This document shows positions 3,475-62,497 of a stretch of DNA of 64,000 bases, in pieces; position 1 is the first letter of the stretch, and each line of letters begins with the position of its first letter. The stretch lies in NCBI GenBank assembly GCA_044225365.1, contig JBGAIQ010000002.1:116451-180450 (forward strand), read 5' to 3'. The stretch comes from Planctomycetota bacterium (GTDB lineage: Bacteria > Planctomycetota > B15-G4 > JADJEK01). A model generated the notes under the pieces. That model saw only the letters and a list, made by a program, of their open reading frames with translations. It made no database searches and had not been told where the DNA came from. The position numbers were made by a program, and so were the translations under genes.

Positions 3475-4761
3475 ATGACCGTCACCCGACCCTTGACCCT
3501 GCCCACGCTTCCACCCTCGCTTCCATCCTCTTCGCTTCGAGTGGCGCTCCACCGAGCGTTCTTCCTCGCGAGTTTGGTCGTTGCGTGCGGAGGATGCGAG
3601 CGCTCGCAGGAGGAGTGGTACTCCGACCTTCGCGCGGACGATGCCTACGATCGACGCCTCGCCGTCGTCGCGCTCGCCCAGGGCGGGGCGCTCGGCGTGC
3701 GCGAAGCCGCGGGCGTGCTCGCGGCGAAGCGCGATCACGACAAGTTGGTCGCCATCTCAGCGGGGCGAGAGTGTCGCGACTACGCCCGCCGCGAGGCCTC
3801 CGTCTTCGTGAACGTCGTCCTCGCGACGGATGCCGAACTCGAAGGACGCGCGATCCCGGCGCGCGCGATCCGACTCGACGCTGCGGAGATCGTGATCGAG
3901 GAAGGGACGAAGACGGAATCGCAGGCGCTCTACGAAGCGATCGTCCGCAAGCCGCCGATCCTCGGCGCGGAGATCTTGGAGATCGCATCGAACACCTTCG
4001 CGCGGATGGGTCGACGCAGCCTTCTCGTGCTCGAACAGGCGATCGCTGCGCAACGTCCCGTAGAGCAGTTGCTCGTGTTCCGAGTGCTCGCGAGTTCACT
4101 GGGGCTCGATGACGCCGCGGAACAGCAAGCCGCTCTCGACTTCGTGAAGGCGCACGAGATCGCCTCGCAGTTCCCCAAGCTCTTCATCGCGCAGTCGTTC
4201 GCGAATCCCTCGCTCGCGAGCACGATCGGCATCGAGGCCTGCGGCGAATACGCGGTCGCGGTGCGGCCGGGTTACGTCGCGCGACTCGTCTCCGACTTCG
4301 CGAGCGGCGGGCCCGGGGGAAGCGACGTCTCGTTACGAGCGGGGGAATCGCTCGCGAGGCTCGGACCGCTCGCGGCGGCCTGCATCGCACCGCTGCTCGA
4401 GGACTCGAATCCGGCGATCGTGCGCGCCGCGATCCGCACCTTCGCTCGTCTCGAATCGGGGCCGGCGCGACTCGCCGCACTCGCCTCGCTCGACCCGCGC
4501 GCCGAGTCGGACAAGGAGGCCTTCCGCAGTCTGGCATCGGCGATGAAGGAAGCGGACGTCGACGAACTCTTGAAACTCAGCGGGGACCGCAACGCCGAGT
4601 CGAGGATGCGCGCCGCGATGATCTTCGCATCGCTCGCAATGGGAGCATTCGGCGGACGGCTCGAAGTCGCGATCGACCGGCTGGCGCATGATCCGAATGG
4701 CGAGGTCGCCGCGATCGCCCACACGGCGCCGAAGCGAGATCGCAGCAATGGCGGGAAGTGA
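3475..4761 (+). CDS. HEAT/armadillo-type repeat lipoprotein (hypothetical)
   Basis: The ORF has an ATG at 3475. A hydrophobic stretch ends in VVACGGC, which is lipobox-like. The rest consists of alpha-helical repeats rich in A, L and R. The third codon position is strongly GC-biased. Confidence 0.65.
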   Translation: MTVTRPLTLPTLPPSLPSSSLRVALHRAFFLASLVVACGGCERSQEEWYSDLRADDAYDRRLAVVALAQGGALGVREAAGVLAAKRDHDKLVAISAGRECRDYARREASVFVNVVLATDAELEGRAIPARAIRLDAAEIVIEEGTKTESQALYEAIVRKPPILGAEILEIASNTFARMGRRSLLVLEQAIAAQRPVEQLLVFRVLASSLGLDDAAEQQAALDFVKAHEIASQFPKLFIAQSFANPSLASTIGIEACGEYAVAVRPGYVARLVSDFASGGPGGSDVSLRAGESLARLGPLAAACIAPLLEDSNPAIVRAAIRTFARLESGPARLAALASLDPRAESDKEAFRSLASAMKEADVDELLKLSGDRNAESRMRAAMIFASLAMGAFGGRLEVAIDRLAHDPNGEVAAIAHTAPKRDRSNGGK

Positions 4762-4771
4762 ACGACCGCAC

Positions 4772-4879
4772 GGACCGCCGGGCCGGACCGGCATGGATAT
4801 GCGGACCGCCGGGCTCCGCCCGGCATCTTCTTGAAGGCGCCAGGCCCGTCTCCTTGGACCGCCGGGCTCTGCCCGGCAT
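4772..4879. repeat. Three tandem copies of a 23-24-bp mini-palindrome (GGACCGCCGGGC-N3-GCCCGGCAT) immediately after the stop codon
   Basis: Copies lie at 4772-4794, 4803-4826 and 4856-4879. Each contains the GCCGGGC/GCCCGGC inverted repeat. Confidence 0.7.
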
Positions 4880-7631: not shown

Positions 7632-8948
7632 ATGAAGACTATCTACCTCCGATTCGTTGCCGCATTCGCGTTGATCCTGACGGCGTTTCCTGCGGCCCGC
7701 GCGCAGGTTCCTGACAAGCAGACCTTGACCGACGCCTACGTCTATTTGCTCGGCCGCGCCATCGCCATCCGGCAGGAGCAGACGGACCTCAAGGAGCCGG
7801 GCATCGACTACAACGTCATCAAGTACAACCCAGCGGGGTCCGCGGATTTCGTGAACCCGAATCTCGACGTCGCCTACCTCGAAGCGTGGATCGCCGTCGA
7901 CGACAACACGCCGGCGGTGCTCGAGGTGCCGGAAGTGAAGGGGCGCTATTACACGGCGCAGATTCTCGACGAGTGGGGCGAGGTCATCACGAACATCAAC
8001 GAGCGCAATTATCCGACGCATCCGTTCGGTAGGTTTGCATTCGTCGCGCCCGGCTCCACGGCAACCGTCCCTTCGGACGCCGCCCGCATCGAATTGCACT
8101 CGCGCAAGGCCAAGTTGCTCGGGCGAGTGGAGCTGAAGACGGACCCTACCGGCGCGATGGCCTTGCAGAAGCAGTTCAAACTCACACCCCTCGGCAAGCC
8201 GGTCATCCAGCCCGCCGCTCCGATGGCGTCGTTCGGGAACGAGAAACTGATTGGGGTGGAGCTGTTCGACAACGTCGATGCAGTGTTGGCCAGCGCGCTG
8301 GATGTGTCGCCGATCGCAGCTCAGATGCAGGCCAAGGCACGAGACATCGGCCGGCAAGTCAAGGATGCTGGGAAGCGCCAGGCGATCGACAAGATGATCA
8401 AGGATGACGTAGTCCCTCAGTTCCTCCGGTACGCCGTCACGAAATCGGGTGCGTTCCAGAACAACTGGCTCGCGACACTAGGCACAGGCAACTATGGCGC
8501 CGACTACTGGAAGCGCAGTTCGGCGAACCTGGTCGGACTCTGGGCGAACGCCAACGACGAAGTGATCTACTTCGTCGCCACGCGGGATGCCGACGGTCAA
8601 CCGCTCAATGGCGCGAACGACTATGTGCTCGAGTTCTCTCCCGCGAACCGGCCAGACGCCGTGGTGAATGCCTACTGGTCGGTGATCCTCGTGGATGTGC
8701 CCGACTACCGGGTCGTGAAGAATCCGCTGAACCGTTTCAACTTCAACAGCGATTCAGGCCTGAAGAGCGAGGCCGACGGTTCGCTGAAGATCCTCTTTTC
8801 TTCGAAGCCGAATTCGGCTGTGCCGGAATCCAACTGGTTGCCGTCCGCGCCCGCCAAGGGATTCTCCCTCACGCTGCGAACCTACGTCCCCAAAGACCTC
8901 GTCAAGCGTGGTGAGTGGTTCCCCCCGGCAATCAAACGGCTGAACTGA
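7632..8948 (+). CDS. Secreted DUF1254/DUF1214-family protein (paralogue of 6134..7606)
   Basis: The ATG at 7632 begins with signal peptide MKTIYLRFVAAFALILTAFPAARAQ. It has the same overall architecture as the preceding gene, including a YWSVILVD motif, and sits in tandem with it. Confidence 0.6.
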   Translation: MKTIYLRFVAAFALILTAFPAARAQVPDKQTLTDAYVYLLGRAIAIRQEQTDLKEPGIDYNVIKYNPAGSADFVNPNLDVAYLEAWIAVDDNTPAVLEVPEVKGRYYTAQILDEWGEVITNINERNYPTHPFGRFAFVAPGSTATVPSDAARIELHSRKAKLLGRVELKTDPTGAMALQKQFKLTPLGKPVIQPAAPMASFGNEKLIGVELFDNVDAVLASALDVSPIAAQMQAKARDIGRQVKDAGKRQAIDKMIKDDVVPQFLRYAVTKSGAFQNNWLATLGTGNYGADYWKRSSANLVGLWANANDEVIYFVATRDADGQPLNGANDYVLEFSPANRPDAVVNAYWSVILVDVPDYRVVKNPLNRFNFNSDSGLKSEADGSLKILFSSKPNSAVPESNWLPSAPAKGFSLTLRTYVPKDLVKRGEWFPPAIKRLN

Positions 8949-9370: not shown

Positions 9371-9451
9371 GCATTGATTCCGTCTGTAGCGGCGGGAAAG
9401 ACCCTTTACTGCTGGTGCCCTGGAGCGGGCACGAGACCGATCCCGAGAAAG

Positions 9452-9893
9452 GACGCGCGATCCCGGCGCGCGCGATCCGACTCGACGCTGCGGAGATCGT
9501 CATCGAGGAAGGGACGAAGACGGATTCGCAGGCGCTCTACGAAGCGATCGTCCGCAAGCCGCCGATCCTCGGCGCGGAGACCTTGGAGATCGCATCGAAC
9601 ACCTTCGCTCGGATGGGTCGACGCAGTCCTCTCGTGCTCGAACAGGCGCTCGCCGCGCAGCGCCCTGTGGAGCAGTTGCTCGTCTTCCGAGTGCTCGCGA
9701 GTTCGCTGGGGCTCGATGACGCCGCGGAACAGCAAGCCGCTCGATGATCTTCGCGTCGCTCGCCGTGGGAGCGTTCGGAGGACGGCTCGAAGTCGCGATC
9801 GACCGGCTGGCACACGATCCGAACCCGGAGGTCGCCGCGATCGCCCACACGGCGCCGAAGCGAGATCGCAGCAACGGCGGGAAGTGAACGACC
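9452..9893 (+). pseudogene. Truncated, internally deleted duplicate of the HEAT-repeat lipoprotein gene (3475..4761)
   Basis: 9452-9740 is about 95 % identical to 3843-4130. 9742-9893 is near-identical to 4615-4764. The N-terminal 368 bp and an internal 484 bp are missing, and the reading frame switches at the junction. The identical post-stop sequence (CGACCGCACGGACCGCCGGGCCGGACCGGCAT) follows both copies. Confidence 0.75.
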
Positions 9894-9958
9894 GCACGGA
9901 CCGCCGGGCCGGACCGGCATCTTACTAATGATGCCGGGCGGAGCCCGGCGGTCCGAGA
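9892..9958. repeat. Long inverted repeat (about 24-bp stem, 9-nt loop) built from two copies of the GGACCGCCGGGC...GGCAT mini-palindrome
   Basis: GGACCGCCGGGCCGGACCGGCAT, then CTTACTAAT, then GATGCCGGGCGGAGCCCGGCGGTCC. The second arm is the reverse complement of the repeat at 4803-4826. Confidence 0.65.
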
Positions 9959-14937: not shown

Positions 14938-15912
14938 ATGCGCACCACCCTTCGCAAACTCTCGATCGCCGCCATCGCGGCAACCTTGCTCGCCGGGTCG
15001 GCCCTGGCCGGCGACTCCTGGCTCACGAGCTACAAGGACGCGCTCGCCAAGTCGAAGGAAACGAAATTGCCGGTGATGGCGGACTTCACCGGGAGCGACT
15101 GGTGCCACTGGTGCATCTCGCTGAAGAAGGAAGTCTTCGACACCGACGAGTTCAAGAAGTGGGCCGCGGACCACGTGATCCTGCTCGAACTGGACTTCCC
15201 GCAGGGCAAGAAGCTGAGCAAGGAGCTCACGAAGCAGAACGAAGACCTGAAGGCGAAATTCAACATCGAGGGCTTTCCGACGCTCGTCTTCCTGAACGGC
15301 GACGGCAAGGAACTCGGTCGCGGCGGCTACGTCGAAGGCGGTCCCAAGCCGTGGATCGAGGCGGCGGAGAAAGCCATGAAGGGCGAGCCGAAGGACGCCG
15401 CGAAGGCGCCCGAGGCGAAGGCCGGCGAGGACAAGGGCCCGTGGATCGAGAGCTGGGACGATGCCGTCAAGCGCTCGAAGAAGGAAGGCAAGATGATCCT
15501 TGCCGACTTCACGGGCAGCGACTGGTGCCCCTGGTGCATCAAGCTCCACGACGAGGTGTTCAACACGCCAGAGTTCAAATCGTGGGCGAGCGCCAACGTC
15601 GTGCTGCTGCTCCTCGACTTCCCGCATCACGAACAGGCCGATTCGATCAAGAAGCAGAACGAGAAACTGCAATCGAAGTACGGGATCCAGGGCTTCCCGA
15701 CCGTCCTCTTCCTCGACGCCGCGGGCAAGAAGAAGGGACAGATGGGTTATGAAGCGGGCGGTCCGAAGCCGTGGATCGAGAAGGCCGCGAAGATCGCAGG
15801 CAACAAGAAGCCGGCGCCGGCTCCCAAAGACGCGCCCGCGAAGGATTCGAAGGACGGCGAGAAGACCGACCCGAAGGCGGGCGGCACCGATCAGAAGCCC
15901 ACGAAGAACTGA
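14938..15912 (+). CDS. Secreted tandem thioredoxin-like (Thioredoxin_7/DUF255-like) protein with two CxxC motifs
   Basis: The signal peptide is MRTTLRKLSIAAIAATLLAGSALA. There are two repeats of LPVMADFTGSDWCHWC / MILADFTGSDWCPWC, each followed by a thioredoxin-fold helix. The C-terminus is rich in K, P and A. Confidence 0.8.
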   Translation: MRTTLRKLSIAAIAATLLAGSALAGDSWLTSYKDALAKSKETKLPVMADFTGSDWCHWCISLKKEVFDTDEFKKWAADHVILLELDFPQGKKLSKELTKQNEDLKAKFNIEGFPTLVFLNGDGKELGRGGYVEGGPKPWIEAAEKAMKGEPKDAAKAPEAKAGEDKGPWIESWDDAVKRSKKEGKMILADFTGSDWCPWCIKLHDEVFNTPEFKSWASANVVLLLLDFPHHEQADSIKKQNEKLQSKYGIQGFPTVLFLDAAGKKKGQMGYEAGGPKPWIEKAAKIAGNKKPAPAPKDAPAKDSKDGEKTDPKAGGTDQKPTKN

Positions 15913-46083: not shown

Positions 46084-46194
46084 GTCGGAACTCTACATCG
46101 ACCGTTCTGAATTTTCAATAAAACATGAAAGTAGAAAAACGATCGAGCCGAAGTCGGCCTCGTCCTCATGCGCAGTCGCGCCGCCCGCTTCTGC

Positions 46195-46440
46195 GATCAC
46201 GCGTGCTCTTGTCGGGACCGATCCGGAGTTCTCCACGGAGGTTCACGGAGGTAAGAGGAGGCCCACGGAGGCCAGGAGGTATGAAAGGGGGCGGTCTCGG
46301 CGGTCCTGACGAATGCGGGCGCCAACGAGATCGCGTCGGGTTCGGCGGACGGCCCCTTTTGAACTTCTGCTCTTCTCCGACCTCCGTGGTCCTCCTCTGA
46401 CCTCCGTGGTCCTCCGTGTGAAATGAACGACTCCGTCCAC
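46195..46440. repeat. Solo copy, in inverted orientation, of the 250-275-bp palindrome-rich repeat family that forms the array at 59885-60745
   Basis: CGGGACCGATCCGGAGTTCTCCACGGAGGTTCACGGAGGTAAGAGGAGGCCCACGGAGG is the reverse complement of CCTCCGTGGTCCTCCTCTTACCTCCGTGAACCTCCGTGGCAAACTCCGGATCGGTCCC from the array. It also contains GACCTCCGTGGTCCTCCTCTGACCTCCGTGG. Confidence 0.7.
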
Positions 46441-46510
46441 ACGGACAGCCGCCCATTGCCCCTTGCATCAGCGCCTGCGGTCGTTTGGATTACGCGCGGA
46501 GGCAGCTTTC

Positions 46511-58828: not shown

Positions 58829-59884
58829 GTGGGGAAACTCGACCGTTACGTCGCCAGCCACTTCCTGTCGTCGTACGGGGTGTGCCTTCTCTTCTTCCTC
58901 GGGATGTTCGTGCTGATCGATCTGTTCAGCAAGAGTGACGACCTGTTCGAGAACGCGCGAGAGATCGCGAAGATGGGCCACTCGATGGGCCCGCTCGTGC
59001 TCAAGTTCTACGCGCTGATGCTCCCCTTCATCTTCCTGCAGGTCGCGCCCTTCGTCACGGTGATGGCGGCGATCTTCGCCATCACTCGATTGCGTCGAAC
59101 CAACGAGATGATCCCGATGGTCGTGGCGGGGCGCTCGCTGTATCGCGTGCTGTTGCCGATCTTCTGCTTCTCGATCGTGCTCGCGGTGGGAATGGGATTG
59201 ATCCAGCAGTACATCGCGCCGGGCCTCGCCGATCAGCGCGAGAAGCTGAAGGATCTGTTGTTCAAGGCGAAGACCGAGCGGATCGTGAACGGCGAGTTCA
59301 AGGTCGGTCCCGCGGAGTGGATCTCGGTCCGCGGCTACGACGTCGACAAGCGCACGATGTCCTACTTCGACTTCACGAACATCCGTTCGGCGGAGGCGTC
59401 GACGGTGGGTCACAATGCGACATGGGACTCCTCTCGCCAGCGGTTCGTGTATCACGTCGAAGTGCCCGATGCCTCGGGCAAGCTCGTCAAGCAGGAGCGC
59501 ATGCTGTCGGCGGCGCTCGATCCGTCGATCCTCGAATCCCAGGATCGCGGTCCCTACGACCTGTCGTTCTCGCAGGCGCAGTACCTGTTCGAGAAGACGG
59601 AGCAGGCGCGCTGGAAGGTGCTGCTGCACTATCACATCACGTTCCCACTCTCGAACCTGCTGTTGTTGCTGCTCGCGTTGCCGTTCGTCTTGAAGCCGGG
59701 CGCTCGCTCGCTGCTGCTCGGAATGGTGATCGCGATCCTGATCTGCGGCGCCTACTTCGCGTTCGACGCGACGATGCGCAACATGGGCGAGAAGGGGAAC
59801 CTCCACCCGGTTCTCGCGGCGTGGTTCGGGGTGATCTTCTTCGGCTCCCTCGGCGTCGTCCTCGCGGATGGCGTGAAGACCTGA
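58829..59884 (+). CDS. lptG: LptF/LptG-family (YjgP/YjgQ) LPS export permease
   Basis: The GTG start begins MGKLDRYVASHFLSSY. It has the same family architecture as the preceding gene and sits in tandem with it. Confidence 0.75.
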   Translation: MGKLDRYVASHFLSSYGVCLLFFLGMFVLIDLFSKSDDLFENAREIAKMGHSMGPLVLKFYALMLPFIFLQVAPFVTVMAAIFAITRLRRTNEMIPMVVAGRSLYRVLLPIFCFSIVLAVGMGLIQQYIAPGLADQREKLKDLLFKAKTERIVNGEFKVGPAEWISVRGYDVDKRTMSYFDFTNIRSAEASTVGHNATWDSSRQRFVYHVEVPDASGKLVKQERMLSAALDPSILESQDRGPYDLSFSQAQYLFEKTEQARWKVLLHYHITFPLSNLLLLLLALPFVLKPGARSLLLGMVIAILICGAYFAFDATMRNMGEKGNLHPVLAAWFGVIFFGSLGVVLADGVKT

Positions 59885-60745
59885 GGGCGATCTCCTTGGC
59901 GCCCACATTCGTGAGGACCGCCGAGCCGGCCCCCGACCGCATCCGTGAACGCAGAAGCATGCGTCGTGGCTGTCCGTGACGGCGAAGTCGATCGTTTCAC
60001 ACGGAGGGCCACGGAGGTCAGAGGAGGGCCACGGAGGTCGGAGAAGAACGGATCTTTCAAAGGGGGCCGTCCGCCGCCCGCGCTGCGATCTCCTTCGCGC
60101 CCGCCTTCGTGAGGACCGCCGAGCCGGCCCCCTTTCCTACTTCCTGACCTCCGTGAACCTCCGTGGCAAACTCCGGATCGATCCCCGCCAGTGCGTGCGG
60201 GAATGCGCAAGCGAGCGTTCCGGCTGTCCGTGACGGCGAAGTCGATCGTTTCACACGGAGGGCCACGGAGGTCAGAGGAGGGCCACGGAGGTCGGAGAAG
60301 AGCAGAAGTTCAAAAGGGGCCGTCCGCTTCTCGCGACGCGATCTCCTTCGCGCCCGACTTCGTGAGGACCGCCGAGCCGGCCCCTTTTCCTACTTCCTGA
60401 CCTCCGTGGTCCGCCTCTTACCTCCGTGAACCTCCGTGGCAAACTCCGGATCGGTCCCCGCCAGTCCGTGCGGGAATGCGCAAACGAGCGTTCCGGCTGT
60501 CCGTGTGGACGAAGTCGATCGTTTCACACGGAGGGCCACGGAGGTCAGAGGAGGGCCACGGAGGTCGGAGAAGAACGGATCTTTCAAAGGGGCCGTCCGC
60601 CGCCCGCGCCGTGATCTCCTTCGCGCCCGCGTTCGTGAGGACCGCCGAGCCGGCCCCCTTTCCTACTTCCTGACCTCCGTGGTCCTCCTCTTACCTCCGT
60701 GAACCTCCGTGGCAAACTCCGGATCGGTCCCTGCGGATGCGCACG
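59885..60745. repeat. Tandem array (about 3.3 copies) of a 250-275-bp unit rich in internal inverted repeats
   Basis: The block CCGTG(ACGGC/TGGAC)GAAGTCGATCGTTTCACACGGAGGGCCACGGAGGTCAGAGGAGGGCCACGGAGGTCGGAGAAG recurs at about 59973, 60222 and 60497. The block GATCTCCTTCGCGCCCGCCTTCGTGAGGACCGCCGAGCCGGCCCCCTTTCCTACTTCCTGACCTCCGTG recurs at about 59888, 60088, 60340 and 60613. Units differ by a 21-bp indel. They are internally self-complementary (CACGGAGGTCAG pairs with CTGACCTCCGTG). Confidence 0.8.
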
Positions 60746-60811
60746 CGAATGCAGAAGCAGGCGTCGCGCAGCGGAGAAGAGAGGGTCGTTCGCTAGAAGA
60801 GCTTGCCGCGA

Positions 60812-62497
60812 TCAGGAACTCGAAGCGCGCGTCCGGTAGCGGTCGGGGTTGTCGAGGGCGTCGGAGATCAGGGCGCGCAGGCGCGCGATGTCCTGGCTGT
60901 CGAGTGCGGAGACCAGCTCGCCGCCGTGGCGCGCCGCGATGGGCGCGAAGTCGTCCGGGTTCACCCGGTCCTTCTTGTTGAACAGGAGCAACGTCGGCTT
61001 CTCGAGGAGATCGAGGTCGGCGAGCGTGCGACGCACTGCATCGAGGTGTTCGACCACCGCGGGATTGGCCGCGTCGGCGACGTGGACGAGAACGTCCGCC
61101 TCGGAGAGACCTTCGAGCGTCGCGCGGAACGCGTTCACCAGATCGCGTGGAAGATCGCGGATGAAGCCCACCGTATCGGTCAGTACCACGTGGTCGGTCC
61201 GATCCGGGATGTACATCTGGCGCGCGGTCGGATCGAGCGTCGCGAAGAGCTTGTCCTCCGCGATCACGTGCGCGCCGGTGAGGCAGTTGAACAGCGTCGA
61301 CTTGCCGGCGTTGGTGTAGCCGACGAGCGACACGACTCGCGTGTTCGCGCGCTCGCGCTGCTTGCGTTGCTCATGGCGTCGCTTGGAGAGCTGCTCGATC
61401 CGCTTCTCGAGTTCGGAAATGCGATCGCGGATGTGACGCCGCGTCATCGCTGCCGCCGTCTCACCGCCACCGACCATCGCGCCGATGCCGCCGCCACCGA
61501 TGCGCGATCGCGTGCCGCGCTCGAGTGAGACGCGAGGCATGTCGTACTTGAGCCGTGCGAGCTCGACTTGCATCTTGCCGTCGGTCGACTGCGCGCGCTG
61601 CCCGAAGATGTCGAGGATCAACGCGGTGCGATCGACGATCTTCAATCGCAGGTTGCTCTCCAGATTACGGGCCTGGACCGGCGACAGCTCGCGATCGAAT
61701 ACGATGATGTCGGCGTTGGCGCGAATGGCGTGGAGTTCGACTTCCTCGACCTTGCCCGAGGTCAGGTACGAAGCGGGATCGATGCGTCGCAACTTCACGG
61801 GGAGGCGTTCGACGACCGCGCAACCGGCCGAACGCGTCAGCTCCGAGATCTCCGCGATCGCATCCTCCATGTTGATCCCGGGGCCGTCCTCGAGGGCGAC
61901 GACCATCGCCCGCGTCTTGCCTTTGACGTCGCGAACCTTGGGCGCGCGCTCCGCGAACTCGCGTTCGAGCAGTGCGATCGCCTGCGCGAAGTCCTGCGGC
62001 ACGTTCTCGAGTCGGATGTCCTCCGATTCCTCGTACGTCTGTCCCGATGGATTGGGCGGCATCAGCTTGGCGATTCGCACCATCTTGCAGGTGCTGTTGC
62101 CGAGCGCGCGGACTTCGACGAGGGAATCGAGTCGGAAGTGCTGGAGGTCGGCGAGGTCGTTCTTGTTGATCGAGTGATCCTTCGTCCCGCGAACTTCGTC
62201 GATGACCGTCTCGACGAGACGGATCCCGCAGAGGCGACCCGACGCGCGACGCGTCGGTGGGGGCTGCGGCACCTCGAGGTGGGTCGCGCTCCCGAGGATG
62301 ACGTGCTCGACCTCACCCGCGCGATTCACGTAGAGGCCGATGCGTCGATTGAGCTTCACCGAGAGCGCCGCGAGCTCGTGGGCGAGGTCGGTGCTGATGT
62401 ACTGTTCGCGGGGGATCCGGCGTTCCGCGAGACGCTCCAGGTGTTCGATCTCGCTCTTCTTCAGTCCTAGCGTCTTGCCGTAGATCTCAGTCTTCAT
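60812..62497 (-). CDS. hflX: GTPase HflX with an N-terminal extension of about 190 aa
   Basis: The G-domain blocks are GYTNAGKSTLFN, DTVGFI and NKKD. They are preceded by the HflX N-terminal domain (IVFDRELSPVQARNLE). Confidence 0.85.
   Translation of the reverse strand: MKTEIYGKTLGLKKSEIEHLERLAERRIPREQYISTDLAHELAALSVKLNRRIGLYVNRAGEVEHVILGSATHLEVPQPPPTRRASGRLCGIRLVETVIDEVRGTKDHSINKNDLADLQHFRLDSLVEVRALGNSTCKMVRIAKLMPPNPSGQTYEESEDIRLENVPQDFAQAIALLEREFAERAPKVRDVKGKTRAMVVALEDGPGINMEDAIAEISELTRSAGCAVVERLPVKLRRIDPASYLTSGKVEEVELHAIRANADIIVFDRELSPVQARNLESNLRLKIVDRTALILDIFGQRAQSTDGKMQVELARLKYDMPRVSLERGTRSRIGGGGIGAMVGGGETAAAMTRRHIRDRISELEKRIEQLSKRRHEQRKQRERANTRVVSLVGYTNAGKSTLFNCLTGAHVIAEDKLFATLDPTARQMYIPDRTDHVVLTDTVGFIRDLPRDLVNAFRATLEGLSEADVLVHVADAANPAVVEHLDAVRRTLADLDLLEKPTLLLFNKKDRVNPDDFAPIAARHGGELVSALDSQDIARLRALISDALDNPDRYRTRASSS

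Follow-up and report, generated by a model that had tools for sequence, protein, structure and literature searches.

The 64,000-nucleotide stretch of Planctomycetota DNA analyzed here (the window; assembly GCA_044225365.1, contig JBGAIQ010000002.1, positions 116,451 to 180,450) carries an array of long palindromic repeats between the convergent genes lptG and hflX. A repeat search shows that this spacer is occupied by three tandem full units and a truncated fourth (59885-60795), each full unit containing a long hairpin with arms built of 10-nt repeats. Relatives lack the array at this junction, and arms of the same type occur in many bacterial groups, where they are physically associated with genes of the GxxExxY family. 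A fairly probable interpretation, and the one favored here, is that the array is a non-autonomous, gene-less counterpart of a hairpin-flanked GxxExxY cassette that was amplified in place. As such, it would resemble miniature inverted-repeat transposable elements (MITEs) and the hairpin-forming doublets of repetitive extragenic palindromic (REP) sequences known as REPINs.

The gap from the lptG stop codon (59884) to that of hflX (60812) is 927 bp long and contains no credible open reading frame (ORF). Repeat-derived DNA extends from 59887 to about 60795. An earlier description made from the letters of the sequence and an ORF list (the sequence-only reading) had placed a tandem array between the two genes. 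That array is real, and Pfam matches confirm the identity of both flanking genes (Table 1), but the intergenic region is longer than the 860 bp given there. Tandem Repeats Finder returns a period of 273 with 2.1 copies and 93% matches at 60147-60731, and the repeat search yields three in-register copies with spacings of 253/254 and 273 bp and identities of 85-95%. The units are not near-identical, however, as about 22 differences separate units 2 and 3 in alignment. The indel previously put at 21 bp is a 20-bp difference that makes unit 1 shorter by exactly two decamers of the right arm.

Each array unit consists of an S segment (about 60-76 nt) followed by a hairpin, H, of about 200 nt. The array as a whole has the order h'-S-H-S-H-S-H-S, in which S is repeated too and the closing S is more degenerate. 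The outer 45 nt of the hairpin arms are a run of 10-nt CACGGAGGnn repeats. In the left arm, these 45 nt read GTTTCA-CACGGAGGGC-CACGGAGGTCA-GAGGAGGGC-CACGGAGGTC, and the right arm is complementary. The window arms thus contain four GGAG units spaced by exactly 10 nt, with GTTTCAC at the outer end. As detected by the repeat search, the inverted repeats of the array units have 46-nt arms with 85-87% complementarity, and the hairpin centre between them measures about 105 nt. The G+C content of the array is 66%, compared with 65% for the whole window.

The long internal inverted repeats and the extended stem-loops proposed by the sequence-only reading are both supported by folding. One unit folds as RNA with -145.0 kcal/mol on the + strand (z -8.1 against shuffles) and -145.2 kcal/mol on the - strand (z -8.0), and it retains a z-score of -7.5 under DNA parameters. 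The inner pairing between AAAGGGGCC... and ...GGCCCCTTT is present in the minimum-free-energy fold. A scan of the array finds neither a promoter-like site nor a stem with a T-run after it. The window has no Rfam match at the gathering score. The unit gives only sub-threshold hits to plant microRNA (miRNA) precursors (41 bits, with 137 required), and the arms in 14 related loci match nothing in Rfam. The array had been described as not obviously coding, and a hidden Markov model (HMM) search of the array and the solo copy described below likewise finds no remnant of a GxxExxY or other ORF.

Comparison of the lptG-hflX spacer among relatives, a check suggested with the earlier description, points to a lineage-specific insertion. 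In a homology search, one NCBI protein is 100% identical to the window HflX, and the nearest named relatives are Planctomycetota metagenome-assembled genomes (MAGs). Syntenic contigs were found with HflX at 83, 80, 76, and 67% identity, and synteny with the relatives extends from 49 kb to 64 kb of the window. Where HflX is 76-83% identical, hflX and lptG either share 11 bp at their 3' ends, on opposite strands (L114 and L115; labels of this form denote individual loci of this analysis), or lie 82 bp apart (L116). Two other genes intervene in L118. No decamer arm occurs in about 90 kb of the relatives' DNA, comprising L114-L118 and the fumC-side loci L126-L128 of the same clade. Because the two genes overlap or lie close together in relatives and these 90 kb contain no arm, the roughly 950 bp at 59885-60835 are acquired, lineage-specific DNA placed exactly at the convergent junction. 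LptG ends in D(G/S)VKT* in the window, L114, and L116, and in DSIKT* in L115. In HflX, the conserved PDR(Y/F) is followed in the window by a 7-residue tail, compared with 11-20 residues of unrelated sequence in the relatives (L114 3020-3059, L115 8650-8704). Judged from this comparison, the insertion also replaced the C-terminal tail of HflX, which would be dispensable. In this genome, the element reshaped the 3' ends of two essential-pathway genes that overlap in two relatives.

The element is also dispersed within the window. With one mismatch allowed, the 11-mer core motif CCACGGAGGTC occurs 18 times, against 2.2 occurrences expected, and the surplus marks a fifth copy, inverted relative to the array, that the sequence-only reading missed (Table 1). 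This solo copy lies about 14 kb from the array between a divergent MarR-family gene and fumC, approximately 60 bp short of the fumC start codon. Its homology to the array spans S, the hairpin, S, and the start of a would-be next unit, and its fold has a z-score of -5.4. In relatives, another gene occupies the interval from the MarR-side gene to fumC, and the exact ends of the solo copy are thus not definable there. Beside the solo copy, upstream of the MarR-family gene, lies an A+T-rich stretch (46100-46140, ttctgaattttcaataaaacatgaaagtagaaaaa) in a window of 65% G+C, which may be the divergent promoter region.

Arms of the window type recur far beyond the Planctomycetota. One genome per species was scanned with the pattern CACGGAGG-N5-GGAGG-NN-CACGGAGG, which has 21 specified bases and an estimated number of chance matches well under one. 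The pattern matched at least 112 loci, and among the matches listed are Planctomycetota, Gemmatimonadota, Chloroflexota, Acidobacteriota, Alphaproteobacteria, Bacteroidota, Spirochaetota, Verrucomicrobiota, Elusimicrobia, and a few actinobacteria. The class is also present in the genomes of the isolates Gemmatirosa kalamazoonensis and Bacteroides finegoldii. The window unit and these loci have only the arm region in common, and the centre is not shared. A single metagenome scan, made with a pattern for the element centre, gave only a chance match inside a coding gene. Many arm loci have the same hairpin design as the array, in which 3-4 decamers, 80-125 nt, and 3-4 complementary decamers follow one another; others are one-sided decamer arrays.

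The orientation of the arms is strict. Among the matches listed, arm pairs within 250 nt have the purine-rich arm first ('><') in 39 cases and the reverse order ('<>') in 2, both of which are junctions of adjacent elements. An arm also fits the partner in its own element better than it fits partners taken from other elements (0.74 vs 0.63, p 2e-6, variable positions included). Given this polarity and the match between partners, the arms act like terminal inverted repeats whose outer end, TTCAC(C), is fixed. The class consensus is TTCAC(C)-(CRCRGAGGnn)n ... (nnCCTCYGYG)n-(G)GTGAA. The decamer-arm class is defined in this analysis, rather than taken from a curated family, by at least three tandem units of about 10 nt (CRCRGAGGnn), an outer TTCAC(C), and the purine-rich arm first, whichever strand is read. 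Inter-arm distances are bimodal, either about 80-125 nt without a gene or 346-575 nt. The window element has arms of this definition and belongs to the gene-less size class.

Tandem growth is seen in other members of the class. A 59-nt unit with a 3' decamer arm is single in one Brocadiia locus (L142, 1228-1307) and doubled in the otherwise identical L136/L138 (1879-2017) from different samples, which is a natural tandem-duplication polymorphism. L013 holds two cassettes in tandem. One-sided satellite arrays are found in Caldilineaceae MAGs (L057 1-150, L093 7150-7700, L028 5800-6100, L100 2350-2700). They contain up to 14 consecutive CACGGAGGGA decamers, or compound 45-58-bp units with 2-3 decamers each, and they have no inverted partner close by. 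The last decamer of L093 is about 130 bp away from a GxxExxY fragment. The arm pattern matched only one viral contig, which argues that the element is not phage-borne, and a blastn search of plasmids with one array unit gave no match. A literature search on the arm sequences returned only unrelated primer hits; most subscription journals were outside its reach, so an earlier description is possible.

GxxExxY genes recur beside these arms. All-against-all clustering of the ORFs from the arm loci identifies GxxExxY as the sole recurrent small-protein family beside the arms in the loci listed. Other clusters near arms (ABC transporters, kinases, dehydrogenases, and similar large families) were rejected as present by chance. 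The family, of about 125 aa, corresponds to TIGR04256 'GxxExxY protein' (E 3e-41) and PF13366 PDDEXK_3 (E 7e-40), and a homology search puts its size at 8000 clusters or more. D-x9-E-x-K is invariant in 42 GxxExxY sequences, and the AlphaFold model has a pLDDT of 91.7. Gene-bearing elements with the same type of end thus exist, and they encode this 125-aa PD-(D/E)XK protein.

The gene is found in 9 of the 112 arm loci listed and lies within 500 bp of the arms in 7. Six of the 8 long-spacing arm pairs in the loci listed enclose a GxxExxY ORF, and L019 and L088 have long-spacing pairs with no clear coding cargo. The ORF stands directly between opposing arms in L013, L035, L009, L069, and L105 (twice). 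A complete gene-less hairpin is located between the ORF and the closing arm in L038, and on either side of the gene in L073. The last GGAGG of the 5' arm was considered as a Shine-Dalgarno sequence for the ORF and rejected, as the spacing between it and the start codon is variable, about 10 to 60 nt.

A sample of 12 GxxExxY genes drawn independently of the motif (eight plasmid records, two viral contigs, and two homology-search proteins) shows the same association from the side of the gene. Flanking repeats are significant in 10 of the 12. Inverted flanking repeats of a strength unreached by 200 shuffles occur in 7 (in L120, the value was reached once), strong direct flanking repeats occur in 4, and L120 and L121 have both kinds. 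Arms of the window type are present in 6 of the 12 genes: CACAGAGG arms in Bacteroides, Bernardetia, and a Planctomycetes MAG, CGCAGAGG arms in Gemmatirosa and Brocadiia, and CACAAAGA / CACGAAGG arms in a viral contig. All 8 annotated GxxExxY cases are co-oriented with both neighbors and wedged in operons (L122, L123, L124, L132, L136; L125, L130, L131). Examples are fabD-X-fabG, E1beta-X-E2 of pyruvate dehydrogenase, radA-X, and radical SAM-X-glycosyltransferase, where X is GxxExxY. The consistent co-orientation suggests either dependence on host read-through transcription or orientation-specific insertion.

A same-genome cassette with matching arms is found in a Gemmatimonas MAG and in Phycisphaerae Co_bin.194 (L035 with L024 and L029). 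The Gemmatimonas MAG has a hairpin of about 170 nt on both sides of the gene and full-length gene-less copies (76-84%) in six other loci, and other Gemmatimonadaceae MAGs have copies at 72-76%. Searches of PADLOC, PHROGs, and PDB sequences with GxxExxY gave no match and thus no evidence of a defence or phage role. In the literature searched, GxxExxY was met only as an annotation label and PDDEXK_3 only in passing. Many GxxExxY proteins are encoded on contigs of 0.5-2 kb. Breaks in assemblies may be favored at these genes, as would be expected of multicopy repeat-flanked elements.

In the favored interpretation, a single insertion at the lptG/hflX junction would have replaced the HflX tail. Unequal recombination or slippage, acting between S segments and decamer runs, would then have enlarged the array in place, and its copies would have partly decayed after amplification. 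The repeated S, the two-decamer indel, and the tandem growth elsewhere in the class point to unequal exchange or slippage as the route of growth. A GxxExxY protein encoded elsewhere in the genome would recognize the decamer arms, either as extruded hairpin or cruciform DNA or as RNA stems, and this nuclease would mobilize and propagate the element. The array would have no dedicated host function beyond the long stems that it places in the 3' ends of both convergent transcripts. The element is thus probably a gene-less selfish element and not a regulator.

Several observations weigh against this interpretation. The window contains no GxxExxY gene. No cassette resembles the centre of the window element, which also lacks an ORF remnant, so that the derivation of the element from a cassette is read from the arms only; the possibility that the centre is a decayed GxxExxY gene was rejected after the HMM search found nothing. 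Inspection by eye shows no target-site duplication around the window copies or the cassettes L123, L132, L136, and L035, and since the S segments blur the element ends, no transposition footprint is established. The arm loci, at least 112 in number, were ascertained through the motif itself and carry that bias. The association between arms and GxxExxY genes could also arise from a shared insertion preference or from RNA processing signals instead of mobilization. A fold search with the AlphaFold model gives only weak PD-(D/E)XK matches (lambda exonuclease, Cas4, and tRNA-splicing endonuclease; best E 7e-3). Moreover, PDDEXK_3 is listed as a family of unknown function that has undergone multiple horizontal transfers (PMC3424549).

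Of the other explanations, the one that carries the most weight, although it is unlikely, is that the array serves the host as a terminator or insulator. Stems between convergent genes could block read-through, protect mRNA 3' ends, or provide RNase III sites, as proposed for REP sequences, bacterial interspersed mosaic elements (BIMEs), and 23S rRNA intervening sequences. The array indeed lies in the 3' region of both convergent genes and offers equally stable stems of about 200 nt on both strands, and the overlap of the genes in relatives makes transcriptional collision plausible there. However, the relatives manage without an array, the stems are not followed by a T-tract, and the solo copy is sited in a divergent promoter region rather than at a 3' end. 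The diverging copies and the truncated one also resemble decay rather than maintenance. A role in the host is still easier to accept than a classical MITE, which is improbable. In that case, the element would be a deletion derivative of an insertion sequence (IS), moved through its 45-bp terminal inverted repeats by a DDE or other conventional transposase. Such an origin would account for terminal inverted repeats with the constant outer end TTCAC, the small size, the multiple copies, and the insertion polymorphism. It fits poorly with the lack of target-site duplications visible to the eye at the window copies and the four cassettes, and with the 112 arm loci listed, where GxxExxY recurs beside the arms and no transposase-like ORF does. 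Conservation of the arm motif across phyla would also be unusual for IS ends.

The sequence-only reading had listed an array of small RNA (sRNA) genes among its candidates. A tandem-duplicated structured sRNA, for example a protein sponge with repeated CANGGANG / GGAGG motifs, is slightly more improbable than a classical MITE. The very strong fold z-scores and the conservation of the motif across phyla speak for it, and CACGGAGGU fits the A(N)GGA-type motif bound by CsrA/Rsm proteins. Nevertheless, the idea is unsupported, since the array has no promoter-like or terminator-like site, matches no Rfam family at the gathering score (only generic miRNA-precursor hairpins below threshold), and folds equally well on both strands. 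In addition, close relatives lack the array, and the motif occurs in phyla without CsrA. A CsrA-type sponge in particular was rejected because the motifs are buried in a near-perfect stem, not exposed in hairpin loops, and the two strands are structurally symmetric. The core sites do not fit an integron attC site, which was rejected as well. Because the source is a MAG contig, an expanded or chimeric repeat created by assembly was also weighed, and it is by far the least credible of these alternatives. Artefactual expansions are normally identical, whereas the copies here differ by 5-15% and a 20-bp indel, and the edge copy is truncated. Furthermore, a separate copy stands in unique context 14 kb away, and the two isolates named above carry the element class.

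At the level of the class, we tentatively raise a broader possibility, which we hold with less than even confidence: decamer-arm hairpins and the GxxExxY genes that they flank may form a previously undescribed pan-bacterial class of selfish elements. The autonomous form would be a minimal cassette of 30-45-bp periodic terminal inverted repeats and one 125-aa PD-(D/E)XK nuclease, inserted co-directionally in host operons. Gene-less hairpins such as the lptG-hflX array would be its MITE/REPIN-like non-autonomous derivatives. If true, the very large, function-unknown GxxExxY / PF13366 family would gain a role as a new mobilizing or homing nuclease. Were the link between arms and gene causal, GxxExxY proteins would have a function open to testing, and small palindromes a new way of spreading and multiplying. 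Such a link could also account for assemblies that break at GxxExxY genes, many of which lie on contigs shorter than 2 kb.

Table 1. Coordinates of the array, its flanking genes, and the solo copy in the window.
Feature	Coordinates	Strand	Basis
lptG, LptF/LptG-family permease, upstream flank	58829..59884	+	Pfam PF03739 (LptF_LptG) E 2e-43; C-terminus ...DGVKT* intact, aligns with L114, L115, L116
Fourth-unit remnant; 48 nt of hairpin centre (59887-59934) directly next to the lptG stop, without left half or right arm	59885..59934	+	Match of 90-94% with the corresponding part of units 1-3; complementarity of 90% with the solo copy
S segment 1, repeated inter-hairpin piece	59935..59993	+	Alignments
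Hairpin 1, 178 nt; left arm with four 10-nt-spaced GGAG units, right arm minus two decamers (20-bp deletion)	59994..60171	+	Repeat search, alignment
S segment 2	60172..60247	+	Repeat search, alignment
Hairpin 2, 197 nt, GTTTCACACGGAGG to CCTCCGTGGCAAAC	60248..60444	+	Inverted repeat; dG -145, z -8.1
S segment 3	60445..60520	+	Repeat search, alignment
Hairpin 3, 197 nt	60521..60717	+	Inverted repeat
S segment 4, terminal, more degenerate	60718..60795	+	Third direct-repeat copy 83%; alignment
hflX junction, encoding the new 7-residue HflX tail RTRASSS* (stop 60812-60814)	60796..60835	-	C-terminal comparison with L114, L115
hflX GTPase, downstream flank, convergent with lptG	60812..62497	-	Pfam GTP-bdg_N, GTP-bdg_M, MMR_HSR1
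Solo fifth copy, S-H-S, hairpin 46228-46423	46154..46451	- (opposite to array)	83% over 298 nt and 85% over 275 nt vs array units

The window also holds a second, small REP-like palindrome, GGACCGCCGGGCTCCGCCCGGCAT, at 4772-4879 and 9898-9954, with three exact-pattern copies against 0.02 expected and one pair in inverted orientation at 9898-9954, separated by 8 nt. All copies of the large hairpin have the first 12-13 nt of this palindrome (GGACCGCCGrGCC) in their centre (11 hits vs 0.9 expected). A 428-aa HEAT-repeat-like gene (3475-4761) has its 3' part duplicated 5.6 kb downstream in a partial, internally deleted form, in which 3842-4135 corresponds to 9449-9742 (95%) and 4616-4794 to 9742-9920 (93%). 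Both HEAT-like copies are trailed by the small REP-like repeats. At 15079-15729, two adjoining segments of about 420 bp are 72-73% identical and resemble a tandem duplication of a coding domain.

Intervening sequences of 23S rRNA, some of them with an ORF, offer a parallel for the two size classes of decamer-arm elements. These sequences sit in a 23S rRNA helix, from which RNase III excises them, and form long stems whose loop is either short or holds an ORF of about 120-140 aa (S23p / four-helix-bundle); the ORF-bearing ones depend on host transcription. Unlike them, the window element is located between protein-coding genes (lptG/hflX, MarR/fumC) and not in rRNA helices 25 or 45, and the ORF family of the class is different. 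CRISPR loci share with the array the regular spacing of repeats that contain palindromes. However, CRISPR consist of 24-48-bp repeats with unique spacers, whereas here the whole 273-bp unit repeats, 'spacers' included, and a solo copy stands elsewhere. The sequence-only reading had excluded CRISPR, and its judgment holds. The window element is also similar to bacterial MITEs (Correia/NEMIS, ERIC, RUP, and BOX) in being non-coding and 100-300 bp long, in having terminal inverted repeats that fold into long hairpins, in its insertion polymorphism between relatives, and in its location beside gene ends. It differs from them in its 10-nt periodic terminal repeats and in showing no target-site duplication to the eye, and no related IS with a recognized transposase is known for it.

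REP sequences are short (20-40 bp) imperfect palindromes, one end of which bears a conserved GTAG or CGTC tetranucleotide, and their clusters can be reiterated in tandem together with pieces of flanking DNA (PMC3733652). Like REP, BIME, and REPIN sequences, the window element is a non-coding palindromic repeat dispersed in intergenic regions. As in REPINs, its unit is a hairpin of two inverted arms around a spacer, reiterated in tandem with flanking pieces. The small gene associated with the class is itself flanked by repeats, with a hairpin on each side in L073 and L121, as are the genes for REP-associated tyrosine transposases (RAYTs). The resemblance ends with the size and sequence of the palindromes, since the window hairpins are 178-197 nt long, about ten times larger than REP sequences, with 45-nt decamer arms beginning GTTTCACACGGAGG and no GTAG/CGTC head. 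The gene that recurs beside the arms in the scanned loci encodes a PD-(D/E)XK_3 / GxxExxY protein and not an IS200/IS605-like HUH Y1 enzyme, as RAYTs are. Unlike RAYT genes, it is multicopy and co-oriented inside operons. REP sequences are species-specific, whereas the decamer arm motif is common to several phyla. The proposal of a MITE-like element or a REP/BIME cluster in the sequence-only reading is therefore upheld with respect to dispersal, absence from relatives, and tandem arrangement with flanking segments, but the element is not a REP proper.

To our knowledge, the known classes of interspersed palindromes (REP, BIME, REPIN, and MITE) are each tied to an HUH or DDE transposase and are usually lineage-specific. 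The repeat type described here, which appears in neither Rfam nor the searchable literature, sets itself apart by a 10-nt-periodic arm recognizable in at least eight phyla and by its tie to the GxxExxY family. The feature in the window is thus an interspersed palindromic repeat, a known kind of DNA, and the class-level link to GxxExxY genes is the more novel possibility.

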